Assembly (NCBI RefSeq): GCF_014698145.1
Contig: NZ_JACJSM010000001.1
Location: forward strand, 152,633-216,632
Length of the DNA stretch: 64,000 nucleotides
Source of the DNA: Oscillatoria sp. FACHB-1406
GTDB taxonomy: Bacteria > Cyanobacteriota > Cyanobacteriia > Cyanobacteriales > Spirulinaceae
Direction of reading: 5' to 3'
Part shown: positions 817 to 38,100 of the stretch, piece by piece
How positions within the stretch are numbered: the stretch's first letter is position 1
How the letters are laid out: each line of letters opens with the position of its first letter
Made by a program: the position numbers and the translations under genes
Notes under the pieces: model-generated
Seen by the model: only the letters and a program-made list of their open reading frames with translations
The model's database searches: none
What the model was told of the DNA's origin: nothing

Positions 817-1743
817 ATGGAAACTCTCCTACACAATCCGATTGCAGAAATGTATGGTCCGTCCTTTTTAATCTTATACGGGGGCTTACTGGCGATCGCC
901 TTTTTAGTCAGTCAATTTCTCCGAAAAAAAGAGGATAAAACCGCTCTCCCAATCCCCAAAGTTCCGAGCCAGCCCGATCCCTATCAAATTGCCTATTTAC
1001 GCGGTGGCTCGGTTTATGCGATCGAATTAGTTTGTTTCAGCTTATTGCAGCGCGGTTATCTAGCGTTACAAGGAGAATCCTTCGTTATTTCTACCGAGTC
1101 GCCTTCCCCAGCGGAATTGAACTCTTTAGAACGGACTGTGTTCGATCGCTTTAAAGAGGCGCGATCGCTAGAGGCAATAAGGCAAGATAGAACGCTTAAA
1201 GCTGCTGTCAAAAAGTGTTATCGTCAGTCTACAAAGGACGAACACTTGCTGTTTTCAGAAATGCAGCAAAAAGTCTCCCTAATTTTTCACGCGATCGCCC
1301 TAGCCTTTTTCCTCAGTTTAGCAGGCTATAAAGTTTTGACCGCCTTAATCAACGGACATCACAATATTCAAATATTGAGTTCGATGGCGTTTGTTGCAGC
1401 CTTGTACTTTATTTCGCGTTTGAATAGAGCGCCTGTTCGCTTGACTCAACGCGGCAGCGATTACATCCAGTCAATAAAAATGGCATTTGAGAGCGTAAAA
1501 GTTGAAGCACACTCTCCGGAGCGCTCCAACCTCGCGATCGCGCTTTTTGGTCACTCAAAACTCGTTGGAACTCCCTACGCACAGTATTCAGCATTCTTTC
1601 TTTTTCAAGACAATAAATCTCTTAGCTCTGCTTCCGTTAGTGCGAGCAAAAGAAGTGGAAGTAGCAGCGGGGATAGTAATAGTTGTGGTGGGGGGTGCGG
1701 GAGTAGCTGTAGTGGGGGTTGTGGCGGTTGTGGGGGAGATTAA
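817..1743 (+). CDS. membrane protein with a C-terminal Cys/Gly/Ser-rich low-complexity tail (TIGR04222-like); putative MNIO substrate or precursor
   Basis: ATG start. Hydrophobic N-terminal segment (FLILYGGLLAIAFLV) plus two central TM helices. The C-terminus is SGSSSGDSNSCGGGCGSSCSGGCGGCGGD, with six Cys at CxxxC spacing. A paralogue follows immediately, then a DUF692 gene. Confidence 0.6.
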   Translation: METLLHNPIAEMYGPSFLILYGGLLAIAFLVSQFLRKKEDKTALPIPKVPSQPDPYQIAYLRGGSVYAIELVCFSLLQRGYLALQGESFVISTESPSPAELNSLERTVFDRFKEARSLEAIRQDRTLKAAVKKCYRQSTKDEHLLFSEMQQKVSLIFHAIALAFFLSLAGYKVLTALINGHHNIQILSSMAFVAALYFISRLNRAPVRLTQRGSDYIQSIKMAFESVKVEAHSPERSNLAIALFGHSKLVGTPYAQYSAFFLFQDNKSLSSASVSASKRSGSSSGDSNSCGGGCGSSCSGGCGGCGGD

Positions 1744-1789
1744 TAACTTTTGAAGCTACAATAATTCTGACATCAAAGGTAGGTCAATC

Positions 1790-2719
1790 GTGGAAAACTT
1801 AATTCACAATCCTATTGCTGAAATGTACGGCCCGCATTTTTTAATCTTGTACGGGGCGTTAATCGCGATCGCGGTTTTAGTGACTCAGTTCTTCCGAGAT
1901 GACGCGACAACCGATCTCCTACAGCTTCCAACTCAACCCGATCCTTATGAAGTTGCGTATTTGCGGGGAGGAACTGCTTATGTTTTAGAACTCGCTTGCT
2001 TTAGCTTATTGCAGCGCGGCTACTTAGAACTTCAGAACGAATTGCTCGCACCGCTCTCAACACATCCGCATTTATCAGAACTCAATTCGTTAGAAGAGCG
2101 GGTTTTTAAGACTTTCAATAGTCCCAAAGCGATCGCAACAATTAAGGAAAATCTGGAACTGACAACCGCTTTAGAAAAGCAATATCGCGGACAAGCGATC
2201 GACAAGCAATGGTTTCATTCCGAAGCGAAAAAACGGACGGCGTTTGCTGCGAACGCGATCGCGGTAGGATTTCTGTTGAGCTTGGCTGGTTATAAAATTG
2301 CCGCAGCCTTAATCAACGGACATCGAAATATCGGTTTTTTAATTTTGATGGCGCTCGCAGTAATCTTTTTATTTGCCAACCCTTTTAATCCCTATACTGC
2401 TCCTCGTTTAACTCGACGCGCGCAGTCGTATCTCTCTCGTCTCAAAACTGCTTTTTCCAGCCTAACCGTGGAAGCAGAATCTGCCTATAATTCTCTCCTC
2501 GCGATCGCGTTATTTGGTTCCGCTAAACTCGCCGGAACACCCTACCAAGACTATTCCTCTCTTTTTAACGCGGGATATTCTTATGCTCCCTCCTCATCTC
2601 GTAGCAGCAGCAGTTATAACAGTAGTTGTAGCAGCGGTGGTAGCAGTTGTGGCAGCAGTTGCGGTAGCAGTTGCGGAGGGGGATGTGGCGGCGGTTGTGG
2701 CGGTTGTGGAGGGGGATAA
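1790..2719 (+). CDS. paralogous membrane protein with a C-terminal Cys/Gly/Ser-rich tail (TIGR04222-like); putative MNIO substrate or precursor
   Basis: GTG start with AAAGGTAGG upstream. N-terminus NLIHNPIAEMYGPHFLILYG is almost identical to the upstream paralogue. The tail is SSCSSGGSSCGSSCGSSCGGGCGGGCGGCGGG with seven or more Cys. The stop codon lies 4 nt before the DUF692 start. Confidence 0.6.
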   Translation: MENLIHNPIAEMYGPHFLILYGALIAIAVLVTQFFRDDATTDLLQLPTQPDPYEVAYLRGGTAYVLELACFSLLQRGYLELQNELLAPLSTHPHLSELNSLEERVFKTFNSPKAIATIKENLELTTALEKQYRGQAIDKQWFHSEAKKRTAFAANAIAVGFLLSLAGYKIAAALINGHRNIGFLILMALAVIFLFANPFNPYTAPRLTRRAQSYLSRLKTAFSSLTVEAESAYNSLLAIALFGSAKLAGTPYQDYSSLFNAGYSYAPSSSRSSSSYNSSCSSGGSSCGSSCGSSCGGGCGGGCGGCGGG

Positions 2720-2723
2720 AATA

Positions 2724-3557
2724 GTGTTACCTTCAACACCTTTAGGAATTGGTTTGGGTTATCGAGAACCCTTTCGCAGCGAGCTTTTTTTAAACCGCGA
2801 TTCGGTTGATTTTCTAGAAATTGTTGCCGAACACTATCTCGATCCTAATCCTTTCAAACAGCAAGAACTCGAACTCCTCGCCGCCCATTTTCTCCTCATT
2901 CCCCACGCTCTCAATTTATCAATTGGTAGCGCCGAAGGAATTGATGAAGATTACCTCAAAATTCTCGCTCATTTGATTCGCAAACTCGATCCGCCTTGGT
3001 GGAGCGAACACCTTTGTTTTACCCGCGCGGGTGGTATCGATATCGGGCATCTTTCGCCCCTTCCTTATACTCGCGAAGCAGTAGAAGTTGTTTGTCGTAA
3101 TATCGAAACCGTTCGCCGCCAAATTGACGTTCCTTTAATCCTCGAAAATATTTCCTACTTGGTGACAATTCCCGGTTCGGAGATGACAGAAGCTCAATTT
3201 ATTGGCGAAGTTGCCGATCGTGCAGAGATCGGAATTCTCCTCGACGCAACTAATTTATACACCAATTCTATAAACCATAGTTATGATATAAAAAACTTTT
3301 TATCGCAACTCCCATTAGAACGAATTGTGCAACTTCATTTCGTCGGCGGTTACTGGAACAATGGCATCTTAATTGACAGTCATTCCCACGCCACACCAAT
3401 AGAAGTTTGGGAGTTAATGGCAGAAATTATTGCAAGCGCTCCCGTGCGATGTGTTGTCTTAGAACGCGATGAAAATTTACCGCATTTTGCTGAAATATTA
3501 ACTGAGTTAGAACGCGCGCGGCAGATTTTTAAGTTTTCTGAGGATAAACAAGTTTAA
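2724..3557 (+). CDS. DUF692 family multinuclear non-heme iron oxidase (MNIO; MbnB/TglH/BufB-like)
   Basis: Motifs align with MbnB: FLEIVAEHYL (cf. ELLIDNFH), SEHLCF (cf. SDHI), ILENISYL (cf. FLENYP), ILLDATNLY (cf. LFDASN), LHFVGGY (cf. FHVAGY) and VLERDENLP...ARQIF (cf. YERDFD...LRDIF). The start is probably GTG at 2724; the listed ORF start at 2514 runs through the overlap with the upstream gene in another frame. Confidence 0.85.
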   Translation: MLPSTPLGIGLGYREPFRSELFLNRDSVDFLEIVAEHYLDPNPFKQQELELLAAHFLLIPHALNLSIGSAEGIDEDYLKILAHLIRKLDPPWWSEHLCFTRAGGIDIGHLSPLPYTREAVEVVCRNIETVRRQIDVPLILENISYLVTIPGSEMTEAQFIGEVADRAEIGILLDATNLYTNSINHSYDIKNFLSQLPLERIVQLHFVGGYWNNGILIDSHSHATPIEVWELMAEIIASAPVRCVVLERDENLPHFAEILTELERARQIFKFSEDKQV

Positions 3558-3599
3558 GGATTTGAATGCCATTTCCTATAAGTTTTGCACTAAATTTTA

Positions 3600-3628
3600 C
3601 CGTAGGGGCATAACAGTGTTATGCCCTT
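3600..3628. repeat. REP-like palindrome GTAGGGGCATAACAGTGTTATGCCC (family C), inserted between the MNIO gene and its partner gene
   Basis: Same palindromic motif as the REPs flanking the RAYT at 37390-37418 and 38097-38123 and within the tandem array at 36595-37339. Confidence 0.7.
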
Positions 3629-3744
3629 AGCCTGGGGAACAATCCAAGCTCCATGAGAAATGGTGTAAGAACCACAAAGACACAAAGGACACAAAGTAAG
3701 AGCGCGGGTATTTCACCGATGAGGCAAGAAGGAGCATTTAATAC

Positions 3745-4332
3745 ATGGTAAACTCGCAAAATTTAGCCAAAACGCAACAGTTTTTAGCTCGACTTTATAC
3801 CAATCGTCAATTGCGCGAAGATTTTTTTACTAATCCTCCTGATGTGGCACGAAAATGGGGTATAGAAGAAGGATCGATTCAACAATTATCTACCTTAGAT
3901 CGCGCGCAAGTTGAATTTTTCGCGAGTTCCTTAATCTCTAAACGTTTAAACCAAGTTAGCAAATTTTTGCCTTTAACTCAAAAAGCTTTAGGGCGAGATT
4001 TTTCTCGTCTCTTTGTAGACTACGCCGAAACCTATTCACCTTCAGGGATTAAAAAACATTGGCAGGATGCTTTAGCGTTTTGCGACTTTTTACAACAAAC
4101 TCCTTTTGAGAAAGATTGGTGGTACGATGTCGTGCGTTACGAACGGGAAAATTTGCGACGCTTGGATTCAAAACTGCAATTTTGCTGTTATCGATCGCGC
4201 TATGCAATCCAACCTTTAATTGAAAGCTTGCAAAAATCCTCAGAAACTCCTGTTTTGATTCAAAAACCAACTTGGGTTGTGGAATTTAAAATTGGAGAAT
4301 TTTCATCAAACTTCAGGAAGAATATGGTTTAA
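3745..4332 (+). CDS. putative MNIO partner protein (MbnC/DUF2063-like role inferred from position)
   Basis: 195 aa, same strand, directly downstream of the DUF692 gene. MNIOs usually act with a small partner protein. The family assignment is not certain from sequence alone. Confidence 0.4.
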   Translation: MVNSQNLAKTQQFLARLYTNRQLREDFFTNPPDVARKWGIEEGSIQQLSTLDRAQVEFFASSLISKRLNQVSKFLPLTQKALGRDFSRLFVDYAETYSPSGIKKHWQDALAFCDFLQQTPFEKDWWYDVVRYERENLRRLDSKLQFCCYRSRYAIQPLIESLQKSSETPVLIQKPTWVVEFKIGEFSSNFRKNMV

Positions 4333-4488
4333 TTCTAAGAGTTCGGGAACAATATTCCTTAATTTCTGCACTAAAGCTTCGAGAGAATCAGCCTCAGTCA
4401 CTAAACCCGGTACGTCTTCACTTGTTGCAGTCCATACCCGAACTTCTGGATCCCAAAAGGCTTTCATCTGACAAGCGATCTTGTTCAT
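4306..4488 (-). CDS. HicB-like antitoxin domain protein (DUF1902-like)
   Basis: 60 aa containing KAFWDPEVRVWTATSEDVPGLVTEADSLEALVQKL, typical of DUF1902/HicB-like proteins. Convergent with the preceding gene and overlapping its 3' end by 27 nt. No adjacent HicA seen. Confidence 0.4.
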   Translation of the reverse strand: MNKIACQMKAFWDPEVRVWTATSEDVPGLVTEADSLEALVQKLRNIVPELLELNHILPEV

Positions 4489-6121: not shown

Positions 6122-9100
6122 ATGACCGACGCGCCCTGCGAAGCAGCACGAAGTCCCGACTTTCAACCCTACTTACAAGCCATCCGCCAACGTTACGAGC
6201 GCTGGTGGGAAGTTTATAGCGTAACCGATGTCCGAGGGCGAGAAAACTGCCCGCCTTCCGCCCCTCCCTACGGCAAAAATTCCTCATCCCCCTTCGACTT
6301 TGGGTTGACGGTGCAAGTGGTAACGCCAGAAGAGAAGCGCCCGCAGCAACCTCTACCTGTATTAGAAAGGTTGCGGAAGTATGTCTTTGACGAAAAGACG
6401 CGGCATCTGCTTTTAGTAGGAAGACCGGGATCGGGGAAATCGACAGCTTTAGCGCGATTGCTGTTGGAAGAGAGCAACGCAACTTCGGGCGTAATTCCCG
6501 TGCTGGTGGAATTGCGTTATTGGCAGACTTCCATCGAAGCGCTGATTCTCGATTTCTTTGGCCAGCACGGGTTGAAATTGAACGAAACGCAACTGGAAAC
6601 TCTGCTGGTAGAAAAGCGTTTCCTGCTGCTGATGGATGGCATCAACGAATTATCCTCAGAAACAGCGCGATCGCAATTAAACACCTTTCGGCAAACCTAT
6701 CGACAACTTCCCATCATCTTTACCACGCGGGATTTAAGCTTAGGCGGCGATTTCGGCATTGAGAAGAAATTGGAAATGCAACGCCTAACGGAACCGCAGA
6801 TACAGGCTTTTGTCCGCGCCTATTTGTCCGAACCAGGGGAAGAATTATTGCGGCAGTCACAGGGAAAATTGCGGCAGTTTGGCGAAACGCCCTTGCTGTT
6901 GTGGATGCTGTGCGAAGTGTTTCAGCAAAGTCCTCAAGCGCAATTACCGAGGAACTTGGGCGGAATTTTTCAGGTGTTTGCGCGCTCTTATGAAAACAGT
7001 AGCGTGCGAAAACACGAAGTTGCTCCTTTGAAAGGGGATACTAAACCCTTGTCGGAGCGAAAATTGTGGGCGAAAGCGCTGGAGCATTTGGCGGGATTGA
7101 TGGTGCGCGGCAAAAATTCCGTTGAGTTGGAAGTGACGATTGAGCGGCAAGTAGCAGAACGAGAACTCGAAGGACTCTTTCAGGGCGAACCCTTTCCCCC
7201 GAAAACAGCGCGCGATTGTTTGGATGATTTGCTCAAATATCACCTCTTGCAAATGAAAGTCGAAGATAAAATCGAGTTTCTGCACCAATTGATTCAAGAA
7301 TATTATGCAGCCGAGGCATTATTGGCGCGGTTGCCAGAGTTGAGCGATGCGGAGTTGAAGCGGGATTATCTCAATTATCTGAAGTGGACGGAACCTGTGG
7401 CGTTGATGTTGGGGTTAGTTGGGGATGAGACGCAGGCGCTGCGGGTGGTGCGGTTGGCGTTGGAGGTGGATTGGAGGTTGGGAGCGCGATTGGCGGGGGA
7501 GGTGAAACGGGATTTTCAGGAACAGACGGTGGGAATTGTAACGGCGTTGGATGTGCCGCAGGGGTTGAAGTGGGAGTTGTGGGTGGAAACGCGATCTGAT
7601 GTTGCTGTTTCGGAATTGGTTAATGCAGGTGAAGATGAATCCTCCTGGGTGCGTCAGAGGGCGGCAGAGGTGTTAGGGAAACTGGGTTCAGAGGCCGCGA
7701 TACCGGGTTTGCTCTCTGCTGTGCGTGGAAGTGTGGTAGAAGCATTAGGAAAACTGGGTTCGGAGGCGGCGATACCGCGTTTGCTCTCTGCTCTCGAAGA
7801 TGAAGACTCCTGGGTGCGCAAAAGTGCGGTAGAAGCATTAGGAAAACTGGGTTTAGAAGCCGCGATACCGGGTTTGCTCTCTGCTCTCGAAGATGAAGAC
7901 TCCTGGGTGCGTGAAAGTGCGGTAAAAGCGTTAGGAAAACTGGGTTCAGAAGCCGCGATACCAGGTTTACTCTGGACTCTCGAAGATGAAGATTACCGTG
8001 TGCGTGAAAGTGCGGTAAAAGCATTAGGAAAACTGGGTTCGGAGGCGGCGATACCGGGTTTACTCTGGGCTCTCGAATATGAAGACTCCGATGGGCGTGA
8101 AAGTACGGTAGAAACGTTAGGGAAACTGGGTTCAGAAGCCGCGATACCAGGTTTACTCTGGACTCTCGAAGATGAAGATTACCGTGTGCGTGAAAGTGCG
8201 GTAAAAGCATTAGGAAAACTGGGTTCGGAGGCGGCGATACCGGGTTTACTCTGGGCTCTCGAAAATGAATCCTCCCTGGTGCGTGAAAGTGCGGTAAAAG
8301 CGTTAGGAAAACTGGGTTCAGAAGCCGCGATACCGGGTTTGCTCTTTGCTCTCGAAGATGAATCCTCCCGGGTGCGTGAAAGTGCGGTAGAAGCGATAGG
8401 AAAACTGGGTTCGGAGGAAGTGATACCGGGTTTGCTCTCTGCTCTCAAAGATGAAGATGACTTGGTGAGCATGAGGGCGGTAGAAGCGATAGGAGAACTG
8501 CATTCAGATGCGGCGATACCGGGTTTGCTCTGTGCTCTCGAAGATGAATCATACTGTGTGTACAAAAGGGCGGTAGAAGCGTTAGGAAAACTGGGTTCGG
8601 AGGCAGCGATAACGGTTTTGTTTCAGGTTCTTGAAAATCAAGACCCAGCAAGGTGTTTGCACGCAGCAGAAGCATTGTGGCATTTTAGTTTAAATGCCAC
8701 AATATTAGGTTTGATCGAAAGTCTTAAAAATCCACACTTTTTTGTGCGTTGGAGTGCGGTTCAAGCTTTAGAAAAAATAGGATTAGAAACGGCTATAATA
8801 GGGACAATCGAAGGTCTTAAAGATCGAAGCTTTTTGATTCGCTGGTATTCGTTAGAAATTCTATGGCAGATTAGTTTAAATATTGAAATTTTCGATCTGC
8901 TTCATTTTTTTGAAAATTACGAATCGAGCGAGTGGGAATATCTAAAAGAGTTATACAAAGACCAGTGCAAAGAAAAGTTAATAATGGGTTTTCTCAAAGA
9001 CCTTGATAGACCAGAATATTTCCTTCGCTGGAGTGCTGTGAAGGCATTAGGAAAATTGCCTTCCAAAACAGGAATTCCAGGTTTAGTAAAAAGTCTTAAA

Positions 9101-10069
9101 GACAGAGAGCCTCTCATACGTCTATACGCGATACAAGCGCTATGCAATCAAAGTTTAGAAGCCGGAATGCTGGGCGCGATCGAAGGTATCAACGATCCAG
9201 ATATATGCGTGCGTTTGTATGCAATGAAAGCCTTAGAAGAACTGGGTTCGGAAGTGGCAATACCGGGTTTTCTCCAGACTCTCGGACACGAAGATTCCTT
9301 AGTGCGTCAGAGGGCGGCAGAGGTTTTAGGAAAACTGGGTTCGGAAGTGGCAATACCGGGTTTGCTCTCTGCTCTCGAAGATGAAGACTTCTGGGTGCGC
9401 AAAAGTGCAGTAGAAGCGTTAGGAGAACTGGGTTCAGAAGCCGCGATACCGGGTTTGCTCAATGCTCTCAAAGATAAATACTCCGATGTGCGTGAAAGTG
9501 CGGTAAAAGCGTTAGGAAAACTGAGTTCGGAAGCCGCGATACCGGGTTTGCTTTCTGCTCTCGAAGATGAAGACTCCCGGGTGCGTGAAAGTGCGGTAAA
9601 AGCGTTAGGAAAACTGGGTTCAGAAGCCGCGATACCGGGTTTACTCTGTGCTCTCGAAAATGAAGACTCCCGGGTGCGTGAAAGTGCGGTAAAAGCATTA
9701 GGAAAACTGGGTTCAGAAGCCGCGATACCGGGTTTGCTCAATGCTCTCGAAGATGAATCCTCCCGGGTGCGTAATAGTGCGGTAGAAGCGTTCGGAAACC
9801 TCAAAAACGATCGCGCCGCCCACATTCTCCCCCACCTCCTCACCCTCATCCCCACCGAATCCGGCGAATCCGCATTCCGCGCCCTCACTGCCATTCAAGC
9901 CAACTGCAAATTCTACAACTACGACCTCTTCAAATCTCCTCCCCTCCCCACAGTACCCGCAACGCCTCCTGCTGTCGTTCGCTATGAGTTCCACAACACC
10001 GAAGTCGTCACCATCGTCGAAAAAAATAACGGCGAAGTCATCGGCAAACAAATCTCCGAGGCAGAATAA
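6122..10069 (+). CDS. NACHT-family STAND NTPase with a C-terminal array of about 25 PBS-lyase-type HEAT repeats
   Basis: Walker A LLLVGRPGSGKSTALARLL, Walker B LLLMDGINEL and a NACHT-like region. These are followed by 31-aa repeats of the form ESAVKALGKLGSEAAIPGLLxALEDEDxxVR, encoded with a 93-nt period. Confidence 0.85.
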   Translation: MTDAPCEAARSPDFQPYLQAIRQRYERWWEVYSVTDVRGRENCPPSAPPYGKNSSSPFDFGLTVQVVTPEEKRPQQPLPVLERLRKYVFDEKTRHLLLVGRPGSGKSTALARLLLEESNATSGVIPVLVELRYWQTSIEALILDFFGQHGLKLNETQLETLLVEKRFLLLMDGINELSSETARSQLNTFRQTYRQLPIIFTTRDLSLGGDFGIEKKLEMQRLTEPQIQAFVRAYLSEPGEELLRQSQGKLRQFGETPLLLWMLCEVFQQSPQAQLPRNLGGIFQVFARSYENSSVRKHEVAPLKGDTKPLSERKLWAKALEHLAGLMVRGKNSVELEVTIERQVAERELEGLFQGEPFPPKTARDCLDDLLKYHLLQMKVEDKIEFLHQLIQEYYAAEALLARLPELSDAELKRDYLNYLKWTEPVALMLGLVGDETQALRVVRLALEVDWRLGARLAGEVKRDFQEQTVGIVTALDVPQGLKWELWVETRSDVAVSELVNAGEDESSWVRQRAAEVLGKLGSEAAIPGLLSAVRGSVVEALGKLGSEAAIPRLLSALEDEDSWVRKSAVEALGKLGLEAAIPGLLSALEDEDSWVRESAVKALGKLGSEAAIPGLLWTLEDEDYRVRESAVKALGKLGSEAAIPGLLWALEYEDSDGRESTVETLGKLGSEAAIPGLLWTLEDEDYRVRESAVKALGKLGSEAAIPGLLWALENESSLVRESAVKALGKLGSEAAIPGLLFALEDESSRVRESAVEAIGKLGSEEVIPGLLSALKDEDDLVSMRAVEAIGELHSDAAIPGLLCALEDESYCVYKRAVEALGKLGSEAAITVLFQVLENQDPARCLHAAEALWHFSLNATILGLIESLKNPHFFVRWSAVQALEKIGLETAIIGTIEGLKDRSFLIRWYSLEILWQISLNIEIFDLLHFFENYESSEWEYLKELYKDQCKEKLIMGFLKDLDRPEYFLRWSAVKALGKLPSKTGIPGLVKSLKDREPLIRLYAIQALCNQSLEAGMLGAIEGINDPDICVRLYAMKALEELGSEVAIPGFLQTLGHEDSLVRQRAAEVLGKLGSEVAIPGLLSALEDEDFWVRKSAVEALGELGSEAAIPGLLNALKDKYSDVRESAVKALGKLSSEAAIPGLLSALEDEDSRVRESAVKALGKLGSEAAIPGLLCALENEDSRVRESAVKALGKLGSEAAIPGLLNALEDESSRVRNSAVEAFGNLKNDRAAHILPHLLTLIPTESGESAFRALTAIQANCKFYNYDLFKSPPLPTVPATPPAVVRYEFHNTEVVTIVEKNNGEVIGKQISEAE

Positions 10070-38008: not shown

Positions 38009-38100
38009 GCATAACCGGGCATAACCGGGCGTAACCGGGCGTAACCGGGCGTAACCGGGCATAACCGGGCATAACCGGGCATAACCGGGCGTAACCGGGC
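38009..38100. repeat. tandem 10-mer array, (G/A)CATAACCGGG x9, running into a REP
   Basis: Starts immediately after the RAYT stop codon. The unit equals one REP half-site (GGGCATAAC) and the array ends in the complete REP at 38097-38123. Confidence 0.85.

Follow-up and report, generated by a model that had tools for sequence, protein, structure and literature searches.

In a 64,000-nt stretch of Oscillatoria sp. FACHB-1406 DNA (hereafter the window), we analyzed a locus at positions 817-4332 that consists of four genes on the + strand, encoding two TIGR04222 membrane proteins, a multinuclear non-heme iron oxidase (MNIO) of the DUF692 family and an MNIO partner protein. We consider it fairly probable that this operon matures two integral membrane proteins, the MNIO and its partner converting Cys residues in the tails of these proteins to 5-thiooxazoles in the cytoplasm, which would give a membrane-anchored tail that binds a metal, possibly copper. 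This proposal builds on the gene content and protein families of the locus, an intact active site in the MNIO, the fold of the partner, the gene order in relatives and the motif of the tails, and we infer that the tails are the substrates, which product they would carry, that copper may be bound and on which side of the membrane the tails lie. The features of the locus are listed below by window position, with the evidence for each in brackets.

817-1743, + strand: TIGR04222 membrane protein, paralogue 1, 308 aa (open reading frame (ORF); TIGR04222 match of 96.7 bits; hydropathy)
1684-1740, + strand: putative core in paralogue 1, CGGGCGSSCSGGCGGCGGD; its 5 Cys lie at residues 290-305 (sequence)
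1790-2719, + strand: TIGR04222 membrane protein, paralogue 2, 309 aa, GTG start (ORF; TIGR04222 match of 96.5 bits)
2627-2716, + strand: putative core in paralogue 2, CSSGGSSCGSSCGSSCGGGCGGGCGGCGGG; its 7 Cys lie at residues 280-306 (sequence)
2708-2712, + strand: GGAGG Shine-Dalgarno sequence of the MNIO gene, within the tail codons of paralogue 2 (sequence)
2724-3557, + strand: MNIO (DUF692) oxidase, 277 aa, BufB/HvfB-like, best start GTG (PF05114; NCBIfam; PDB matches; ligands)
3603-3629, no strand assigned: palindrome resembling repetitive extragenic palindromic (REP) elements, core GGGCATAACAGTGTTATGCCC, in the 187-nt spacer between the MNIO and partner genes (shuffles; overlaps in relatives)
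3745-4332, + strand: MNIO partner, 195 aa, with a DUF2063-like helical N-domain and a reduced C-domain resembling the recognition element (RRE) of ribosomally made peptides that are modified after translation (RiPPs); PF26136 SCO6045_C label; 'PME-type 2'

The membrane proteins and their Cys-containing tails

The two membrane proteins are 50% identical to each other, and both match the TIGR04222 model well above its cutoff of 43 bits (NCBIfam); paralogue 1 has been named 'TIGR04222 domain-containing membrane protein' by NCBI. Three clear transmembrane (TM) helices were seen by hydropathy analysis. In paralogue 1, TM1 is separated from TM2 by a large soluble domain and the protein ends in a disordered tail of Cys, Gly and Ser, and in the AlphaFold2 (AF2) model of paralogue 2 (predicted local distance difference test score, pLDDT, of 84) residues 264-309 are disordered. 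The tail of paralogue 1 ends in ...SNSCGGGCGSSCSGGCGGCGGD and contains five Cys, at residues 290, 294, 298, 302 and 305, while that of paralogue 2 ends in ...SSCSSGGSSCGSSCGSSCGGGCGGGCGGCGGG and contains seven, at residues 280, 287, 291, 295, 299, 303 and 306. The Cys are spaced as CxxxC throughout, except for the last pair, which is CxxC, and the first pair of the second tail, which lies 7 residues apart. Every tail Cys in both paralogues precedes a Gly or a Ser, and the linker that leads from the putative fourth helix to the first Cys is Ser-rich and disordered.

The first-pass annotation of this DNA had correctly given the ORF coordinates and the four-gene same-strand layout, including the tandem pair of paralogous membrane proteins of about 308 aa and an MNIO gene (2724-3557) that starts 4 nt past the stop of the second of them. 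It had also recognized the Cys tails, but its count of 6-7 Cys has to be replaced by 5 and 7, its version of the second tail was one CGSS too long, and the CxxxC spacing that it described holds for most pairs but not for the two exceptions given above.

At 308 and 309 residues, these polytopic proteins are not canonical RiPP precursors, which are short leader-core peptides with proteolytic release and dedicated export, and they had no Pfam or NCBIfam matches to the precursor domains of bufferins and oxazolin (DUF2282, Buf_6/12Cys). At the N-terminus they carry not a Sec signal peptide but a TM helix that stays uncleaved and whose head is acidic and free of Lys and Arg (K/R). They do have the features by which MNIO substrates have been proposed among TIGR04222 proteins in the published work, namely an unstructured Ser/Gly-rich C-terminus that contains Cys and an MNIO gene next to their own. 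The same type of tail was found in an alignment of 56 relatives, in which the C-terminal motif GGGCGGCGG is nearly invariant; in loci with the TIGR04222-MNIO-partner arrangement the tails end in ...CGGGCGGCGG. The 56 relatives have on average 5.1 tail Cys (range 0-8) at spacings of mainly 3-5 residues, and the residue that follows the Cys is Gly in 252 of 283 cases (89%) and Ser in 27 (9.5%).

The MNIO and its partner protein

The MNIO matches the PF05114 model (MbnB_TglH_ChrH) with E 2.2e-84 and 283.3 bits (cutoff 25) over profile positions 1-261 of 263. Thus, the profile searches that the first-pass annotation had suggested as a check gave significant matches both to PF05114 and to TIGR04222. 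Its assignment of the enzyme to DUF692 stands, but its description of the enzyme as MbnB-like was loose, since MbnB is the lowest of the five NCBIfam scores (BufB 225.7, HvfB 205.4, ApyH 125.6, ChrH 57 and MbnB 43.5 bits). Judged by these scores, which all fall short of the respective equivalog cutoffs, the enzyme is BufB/HvfB-like and an orthologue of no characterized enzyme. Sequence matches in the PDB were 3bww (E 2e-32) and TglH (8hci/8hi7; E 1.5e-30). The iron ligands of TglH are His71, His107, Glu151, Asp184, Asn187, His216, Asp229, His231 and Glu258, and TglH Asn73 orients the Cys (PMC10880893). All nine ligands are identical in the MNIO studied here (H61, H96, E141, D174, N177, H205, D218, H220 and E247), and TglH Asn73 aligns to the identical N64. 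The proposed catalytic base in FonB is Asp249, which lies within an ERD motif (PMC13097082), and this motif is present as E247-R248-D249. The active site thus appears intact and the enzyme looks competent. The position directly after the catalytic Asp has been linked to specificity, being Phe in Lys-Cys MNIOs and Asp in Cys-Lys MNIOs (PMC13097082). At this position 3bww has a Phe (LERDFN), and the window MNIO and the eight related MNIOs that were read have a Glu (LERDEN/LERDED).

The partner protein was assigned to its fold by structure comparison, the sequence searches being too weak for this purpose. A database record of the same strain that is 100% identical to it carries a hypothetical-protein annotation. 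No Pfam match, and hence no DUF2063 signature, was obtained up to E = 10, and with 195 aa the protein is shorter than PME-type 1 partners, which have a full RRE domain and ~250-260 aa; local Pfam searches and single-sequence and profile searches of the PDB gave only weak NHLP/LigA-like matches in the N-terminal part. The label PF26136 SCO6045_C is found as a precomputed annotation on the identical protein (P0001) and on most relatives, although our local Pfam scan returned nothing at E = 10. The SCO6045 literature was considered as a functional clue and set aside as uninformative, its sole mention being a ~3-fold change in a Streptomyces RNA-seq table. As described for PME-type 2 partners, the gene follows that of the MNIO, and the protein lacks the DUF2063 signature and is structurally related to NGO1945 (3dee) and TglI (8hi7). 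Clustered at 50% identity, the family comprises over 1,500 representatives. The last strand of the window protein departs from the family consensus and was modeled with low confidence (pLDDT ~64-68).

Conservation of the locus

A search based on the partner, using an alignment of 5 sequences, retrieved 13 genome loci; an alignment of 60 partner sequences could not be used for this search because no stretch was conserved enough. The order TIGR04222-MNIO-partner was found in Anabaena azotica, Iningainema, Tundrisphaera (Planctomycetota), a metagenome-assembled genome (MAG) of Sericytochromatia, Coleofasciculus, two metagenome contigs and two Tolypothrix genomes, each of the latter with a tandem pair of TIGR04222 genes. 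In a second search, based on TIGR04222 homologues located on long contigs, an MNIO gene was directly downstream in 4 of 5 cases, the partner gene was present as well in 3 of these 4, and one tandem TIGR04222 pair was seen. The junction between the TIGR04222 and MNIO genes measures 4-6 nt in relatives. Conserved synteny of Cys-tailed TIGR04222 proteins with an MNIO, the other check named in the first-pass annotation, is therefore observed across phyla, and it includes the partner. The window paralogues are 29-36% identical to the Tolypothrix copies and 50% identical to each other, which indicates that the duplications are lineage-specific.

Three further cyanobacterial hits of the partner search, in Scytonema hofmanni, Plectonema radiosum and Goleter apudmare (L011-L013), gave only partial partner matches, covering query residues 59-156, 82-156 and 77-129, and neither an MNIO nor a TIGR04222 gene was detected in their flanks. 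These fragments look like the remnants of decayed systems. A potassium-channel-type gene (Ion_trans/Ion_trans_2) is located on the same strand directly upstream of the TIGR04222-MNIO locus in six loci (L001, L003, L004, L008, L014 and L015) and nearby in L018 and L019, and in Nostocales its product has a zinc-ribbon-like C-terminal end, CxxCG...FCxxCG. No such gene is found next to the window operon.

Radical SAM/SPASM enzymes in relatives that lack an MNIO

One TIGR04222 homologue, P0265, which is 36% identical to paralogue 2 and has a tail ending in ...CGGSSSGGCGGGGSSGCGGGGGCGGCGGG, is followed not by an MNIO gene but by a gene for a radical SAM/SPASM enzyme, the two genes overlapping by 25 nt. 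When metagenomes were scanned with this enzyme, 52 loci were obtained. At least 13 of these have an adjacent TIGR04222-like ORF with a Cys-Gly tail; among the others, many contigs are too short for adjacency to be judged. The TIGR04222-like ORFs were positioned upstream of, downstream of or divergently from the radical SAM gene. The loci of this type are listed on the next line.

Radical SAM-TIGR04222 loci: L018:4001-6030; L023-L025, L027, L028, L034, L035, L037, L039, L041, L043, L046, L066

The top NCBIfam match of the L018 enzyme is SbtM, a radical SAM thio(seleno)oxazole maturase, at 157.6 bits against a cutoff of 350, and in its 48%-identical relative from L046 SbtM ranks fifth. An assignment as an orthologue of the thiooxazole-forming SbtM was rejected on these grounds, and we describe the enzymes only as radical SAM/SPASM maturase-like. 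A nucleotidyltransferase-like gene lies directly upstream of TIGR04222 both in a radical SAM-type locus (L046:3954-4805) and in an MNIO-type locus (L021:3249-4004), the L021 protein having weak ANT/MntA-type matches.

The recurrence of a radical SAM gene beside Cys-tailed TIGR04222 proteins in relatives without an MNIO is independent evidence that the tail is a modification target. We tentatively suggest, as a possibility held with less than even confidence, that Cys-Gly-tailed TIGR04222 proteins are a substrate class shared by two unrelated types of maturase, an O2-dependent MNIO with its PME-type 2 partner and, in MNIO-less relatives, an O2-independent radical SAM/SPASM enzyme, both yielding a membrane-anchored array of Cys-derived heterocycles. 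If true, this would be the first MNIO to act on an integral membrane protein, and it would reveal an aerobic and an anaerobic route to one membrane-tethered metallophore. Relatives linked to a radical SAM gene are natural counterparts with which to compare the MNIO loci; no radical SAM/SPASM gene is present in the window.

Topology of the membrane proteins

To place the domains relative to the membrane, K+R residues were counted in the 56 relatives. The mean counts are 0.3 for the N-terminus, 2.1 for the 15 residues after TM1, 2.3 for the 15 residues before TM2, 1.1 for the TM2-TM3 loop and 4.3 for the 15 residues after TM3. Under the positive-inside rule, these values place the N-terminus outside and both the large soluble domain (approximately residues 36-150) and loop 3 in the cytoplasm. 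Hence, the soluble domain of the TIGR04222 proteins is probably cytoplasmic. It is plausible that this domain serves as a docking surface for the MNIO and its partner, and it is probably the surface by which the substrate is recognized.

A conserved ALFG..AGTPY helix, at residues 232-247 in the AF2 model, represents a putative helix 4. If the proteins have three TM helices, the tail lies in the cytoplasm; for it to lie outside, helix 4 would have to cross the membrane. Whichever side it ends up on, the tail is made last, so it should be accessible to a cytoplasmic complex of MNIO and partner.

Proposed maturation pathway and its alternatives

In the proposed pathway, the TIGR04222 paralogues would be synthesized with disordered C-terminal tails of the type (Cys-Gly/Ser-x-x)n, and the MNIO and its DUF2063-like partner would form a cytoplasmic complex, in which the partner recruits the substrate and tunes the iron cofactor by analogy with HvfC, a partner shown to tune the iron cofactor. 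The MNIO would then use O2 and a di- or tri-iron site to oxidize each tail Cys by four electrons. The likeliest product would be 5-thiooxazole (-4 Da per Cys), proposed here because the closest characterized relatives, BufB, HvfB and FonB, make this product. Indeed, BufB1/2, HvfB, FonB and NgoB all convert Cys to 5-thiooxazole with a loss of 4 Da each, they need a partner of the DUF2063 fold, and their products bind copper. Furthermore, the Cys-Gly context of the tails fits the measured preference of 5-thiooxazole-forming MNIOs, as FonBC favors Cys-Gly dyads that precede a small residue (PMC13097082). Up to 5 and 7 thiooxazoles would be installed on the two tails, so that 5 to 7 soft-metal ligands would be tethered to the membrane as an array, copper being the most plausible metal, with the tail either staying in the cytoplasm or being flipped outward by the weakly hydrophobic fourth helix.

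Several observations weigh against this proposal. The MNIO scores below the equivalog cutoffs of both BufB (NF050167, 225.7 versus 310) and HvfB (NF003818, 205.4 versus 360), so that its chemistry could differ, and its partner is not of PME-type 1, whereas all proven 5-thiooxazole systems use a PME-type 1 partner. No copper or other metal genes flank the operon among its neighbors in the window, and the literature searched contained no experimental evidence for modification of any TIGR04222 protein. About one third of the genomes with TIGR04222 genes are without any MNIO, and one quarter of the TIGR04222 proteins are without a C-proximal Cys (PMC12452194). With regard to an external tail, the Kyte-Doolittle value of helix 4 reaches the TM threshold of 1.6 in 34 of the 56 relatives, the window proteins having values of 1.04 and 0.62. 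Finally, the partner gene is not directly downstream of the MNIO gene in L021, and a Planctomycetota MAG contains an MNIO-partner pair (L007:5168-6630) with no TIGR04222 gene within 6 kb, which implies that the substrate of that pair is encoded elsewhere or is a different one. The L007 pair is flanked by sodium:solute symporter-like genes.

Some of these observations would be explained if the same tails underwent another reaction, such as formation of oxazolone and thioamide as in methanobactin, excision of the beta-carbon as by TglH, or formation of Cys-derived crosslinks or macrocycles as by ChrH. The reactions of the MNIO family are very diverse, and the sub-cutoff scores, the PME-type 2 partner and the Glu that follows the catalytic Asp here and in the eight related enzymes, where Lys-Cys and Cys-Lys enzymes have Phe and Asp, are all compatible with a departure from the chemistry of BufB and HvfB. 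However, the MNIO scores above 200 bits with precisely these two families and far lower with MbnB, ChrH and ApyH, and MNIOs associated with TIGR04222 have been placed near those of bufferins and oxazolin (PMC12452194). The former oxazolone/thioamide assignment of oxazolin has, moreover, been revised to 5-thiooxazole, and the Cys-Gly dyads match the substrate preference of enzymes that form this product. We therefore regard a different chemistry as unlikely.

It is more improbable still that the tails are not MNIO substrates at all and instead are unmodified thiolate-rich or low-complexity segments, be they metallothionein-like, Fe-S-binding or structural, with the substrate of the MNIO and its partner encoded elsewhere. 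The TIGR04222 genomes without an MNIO, the TIGR04222 proteins without C-proximal Cys and the L007 pair are in line with this idea, and the thiols of a cytoplasmic tail would be kept reduced and could bind metals directly. Against it stand the tight gene order that is conserved across phyla, with junctions of 4-6 nt or overlapping genes, the conserved Cys-Gly context, and the fact that MNIO-less relatives encode the same tails next to a radical SAM/SPASM maturase-like enzyme. An alternative substrate was not found in the spacers at 604-816 and 3558-3744 either: inspection for a hidden short precursor revealed chance ORFs only, without Cys-Gly repeats, and no other Cys-rich small ORF.

An equally slim chance is assigned to the idea that the membrane protein is a giant leader, its body acting as a scaffold and perhaps as its own exporter, from which the modified tail is cleaved and released as a diffusible metallophore: proteolytic release is the usual end of RiPP logic, the N-terminal moiety has been speculated to take part in biogenesis (PMC12452194) and the linker before the first Cys is Ser-rich and disordered, but the operon has no protease, transporter or exporter gene and none is conserved among related loci, the alignment of 56 relatives shows no cleavage motif conserved in the stretch from helix 4 to the Cys array, and bufferins and oxazolin stay whole small proteins once their signal peptide has been removed.

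Should modification of the tails by the MNIO be confirmed, MNIOs would act on full-size integral membrane proteins and not only on peptides, and bacteria would carry membrane-tethered poly-thiooxazole metal ligands, including cyanobacteria, which have a heavy copper traffic to plastocyanin and oxidases. The locus provides a compact test case: it has only four genes, its two substrates are natural variants with 5 and 7 Cys, the active site of its MNIO is intact and its partner protein was modeled with confidence.

Spacer, REP-like palindrome and neighboring genes

The MNIO gene has its Shine-Dalgarno sequence among the codons for the tail of paralogue 2, a position that predicts translational coupling of the two genes. 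The MNIO and partner genes overlap by ~10 nt in relatives and are separated here by the 187-nt spacer (3558-3744). The first-pass annotation had noted a REP element in this spacer, and this is borne out: the palindrome GGGCATAACAGTGTTATGCCC at 3606-3626 occurs four times in the window (3606, 37392, 38097 and 38208), with 0 copies expected from 100 shuffles, and is a true REP-like element of the dispersed kind. Three tandem GGGCATAACC/GGGCGTAACC units precede the copy at 38097. Both the C-terminus of the MNIO (..IFKFSEDKQV) and the N-terminus of the partner (MVNSQN..) depart from the family consensus at the spacer. This divergence of both protein ends at the REP-bearing spacer suggests an insertion that left both ORFs intact, and the REP insertion uncouples the MNIO gene from the partner gene.

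Upstream of the operon lies a divergent gene for a protein with a signal peptide, predicted to be secreted and without a family match; downstream are a convergent DUF1902 gene, aroA and a gene for a NACHT-HEAT protein. As the upstream gene is divergent and the downstream gene convergent, the unit consists of the four genes. Promoter and terminator scans gave results no different from those with shuffled sequence. The DUF1902 gene (60 aa, E 6e-18; window 4306-4488, - strand) converges on the partner gene and overlaps its final 27 nt. The NACHT-HEAT gene (6122-10069, + strand) encodes a 1,315-aa fusion of a NACHT/NB-ARC NTPase with a long PBS-lyase-type HEAT repeat array, and its HEAT repeat region has a strong positive GC skew of ~0.3 across 7000-9000.

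Comparison with known systems

Subsets of TIGR04222 membrane proteins have been proposed as MNIO substrates with 'PME-type 2' partners (PMC12452194, Microb Genom 2025). The present locus is a cyanobacterial member of this class, which was predicted bioinformatically in 2025, and it does not define a new category. The central idea of the first-pass annotation, an MNIO that acts on Cys-tailed membrane proteins, is accordingly supported by the profile matches, the synteny and the Cys-Gly/Ser context but is not new, the same hypothesis having been reached independently in PMC12452194. The clusters described there share with the window locus the three gene families and their usual order, an MNIO close to those of bufferins and oxazolin, polytopic substrates without signal peptide and with unstructured Ser/Gly/Cys C-terminal tails, and a partner that lacks the DUF2063 Pfam signature and is structurally similar to NGO1945 and TglI. 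What sets the window locus apart is the tandem arrangement of two substrate genes and the spacer with the REP-like palindrome. Moreover, the survey found the family mainly in Actinomycetota and does not mention cyanobacteria, and it speaks of large periplasmic domain(s), whereas the K/R counts of the clade studied here place the soluble domain in the cytoplasm.

With the bufferins and captophorins (BufABC, the oxazolin system HvfABC, the fontiphorin system FonABC, and NgoABC), the window locus shares the closest MNIO, a partner of the DUF2063 fold and multiple Cys-Gly dyads. In those systems, small soluble precursors (proteins or peptides) have a Sec signal peptide and work with PME-type 1 partners, whereas the window substrates are membrane proteins of ~310 aa without signal peptide, the partner is of PME-type 2 and a DoxX gene is absent. 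The repeat differs as well, the window tails having C-G/S-x-x in place of EGKCG. The methanobactin system MbnABC is alike in that an MNIO and a partner modify Cys that precede a small residue to give a copper chelator. In the 3-thiaglutamate pathway (TglHI), both the reaction and the type of substrate are different: a 50-residue scaffold peptide carries a single C-terminal Cys, from which TglH removes the beta-carbon. SbtM forms thiooxazole at a Gly-Cys motif, and the resemblance of the radical SAM/SPASM enzyme of the MNIO-less relatives to it is only a lead; this radical SAM/SPASM alternative is not mentioned in the TIGR04222-MNIO survey (PMC12452194). New in the present analysis are the probable assignment of the soluble domain to the cytoplasm, the Glu found where specificity has been located, the suggested REP insertion and the possible radical SAM/SPASM alternative.

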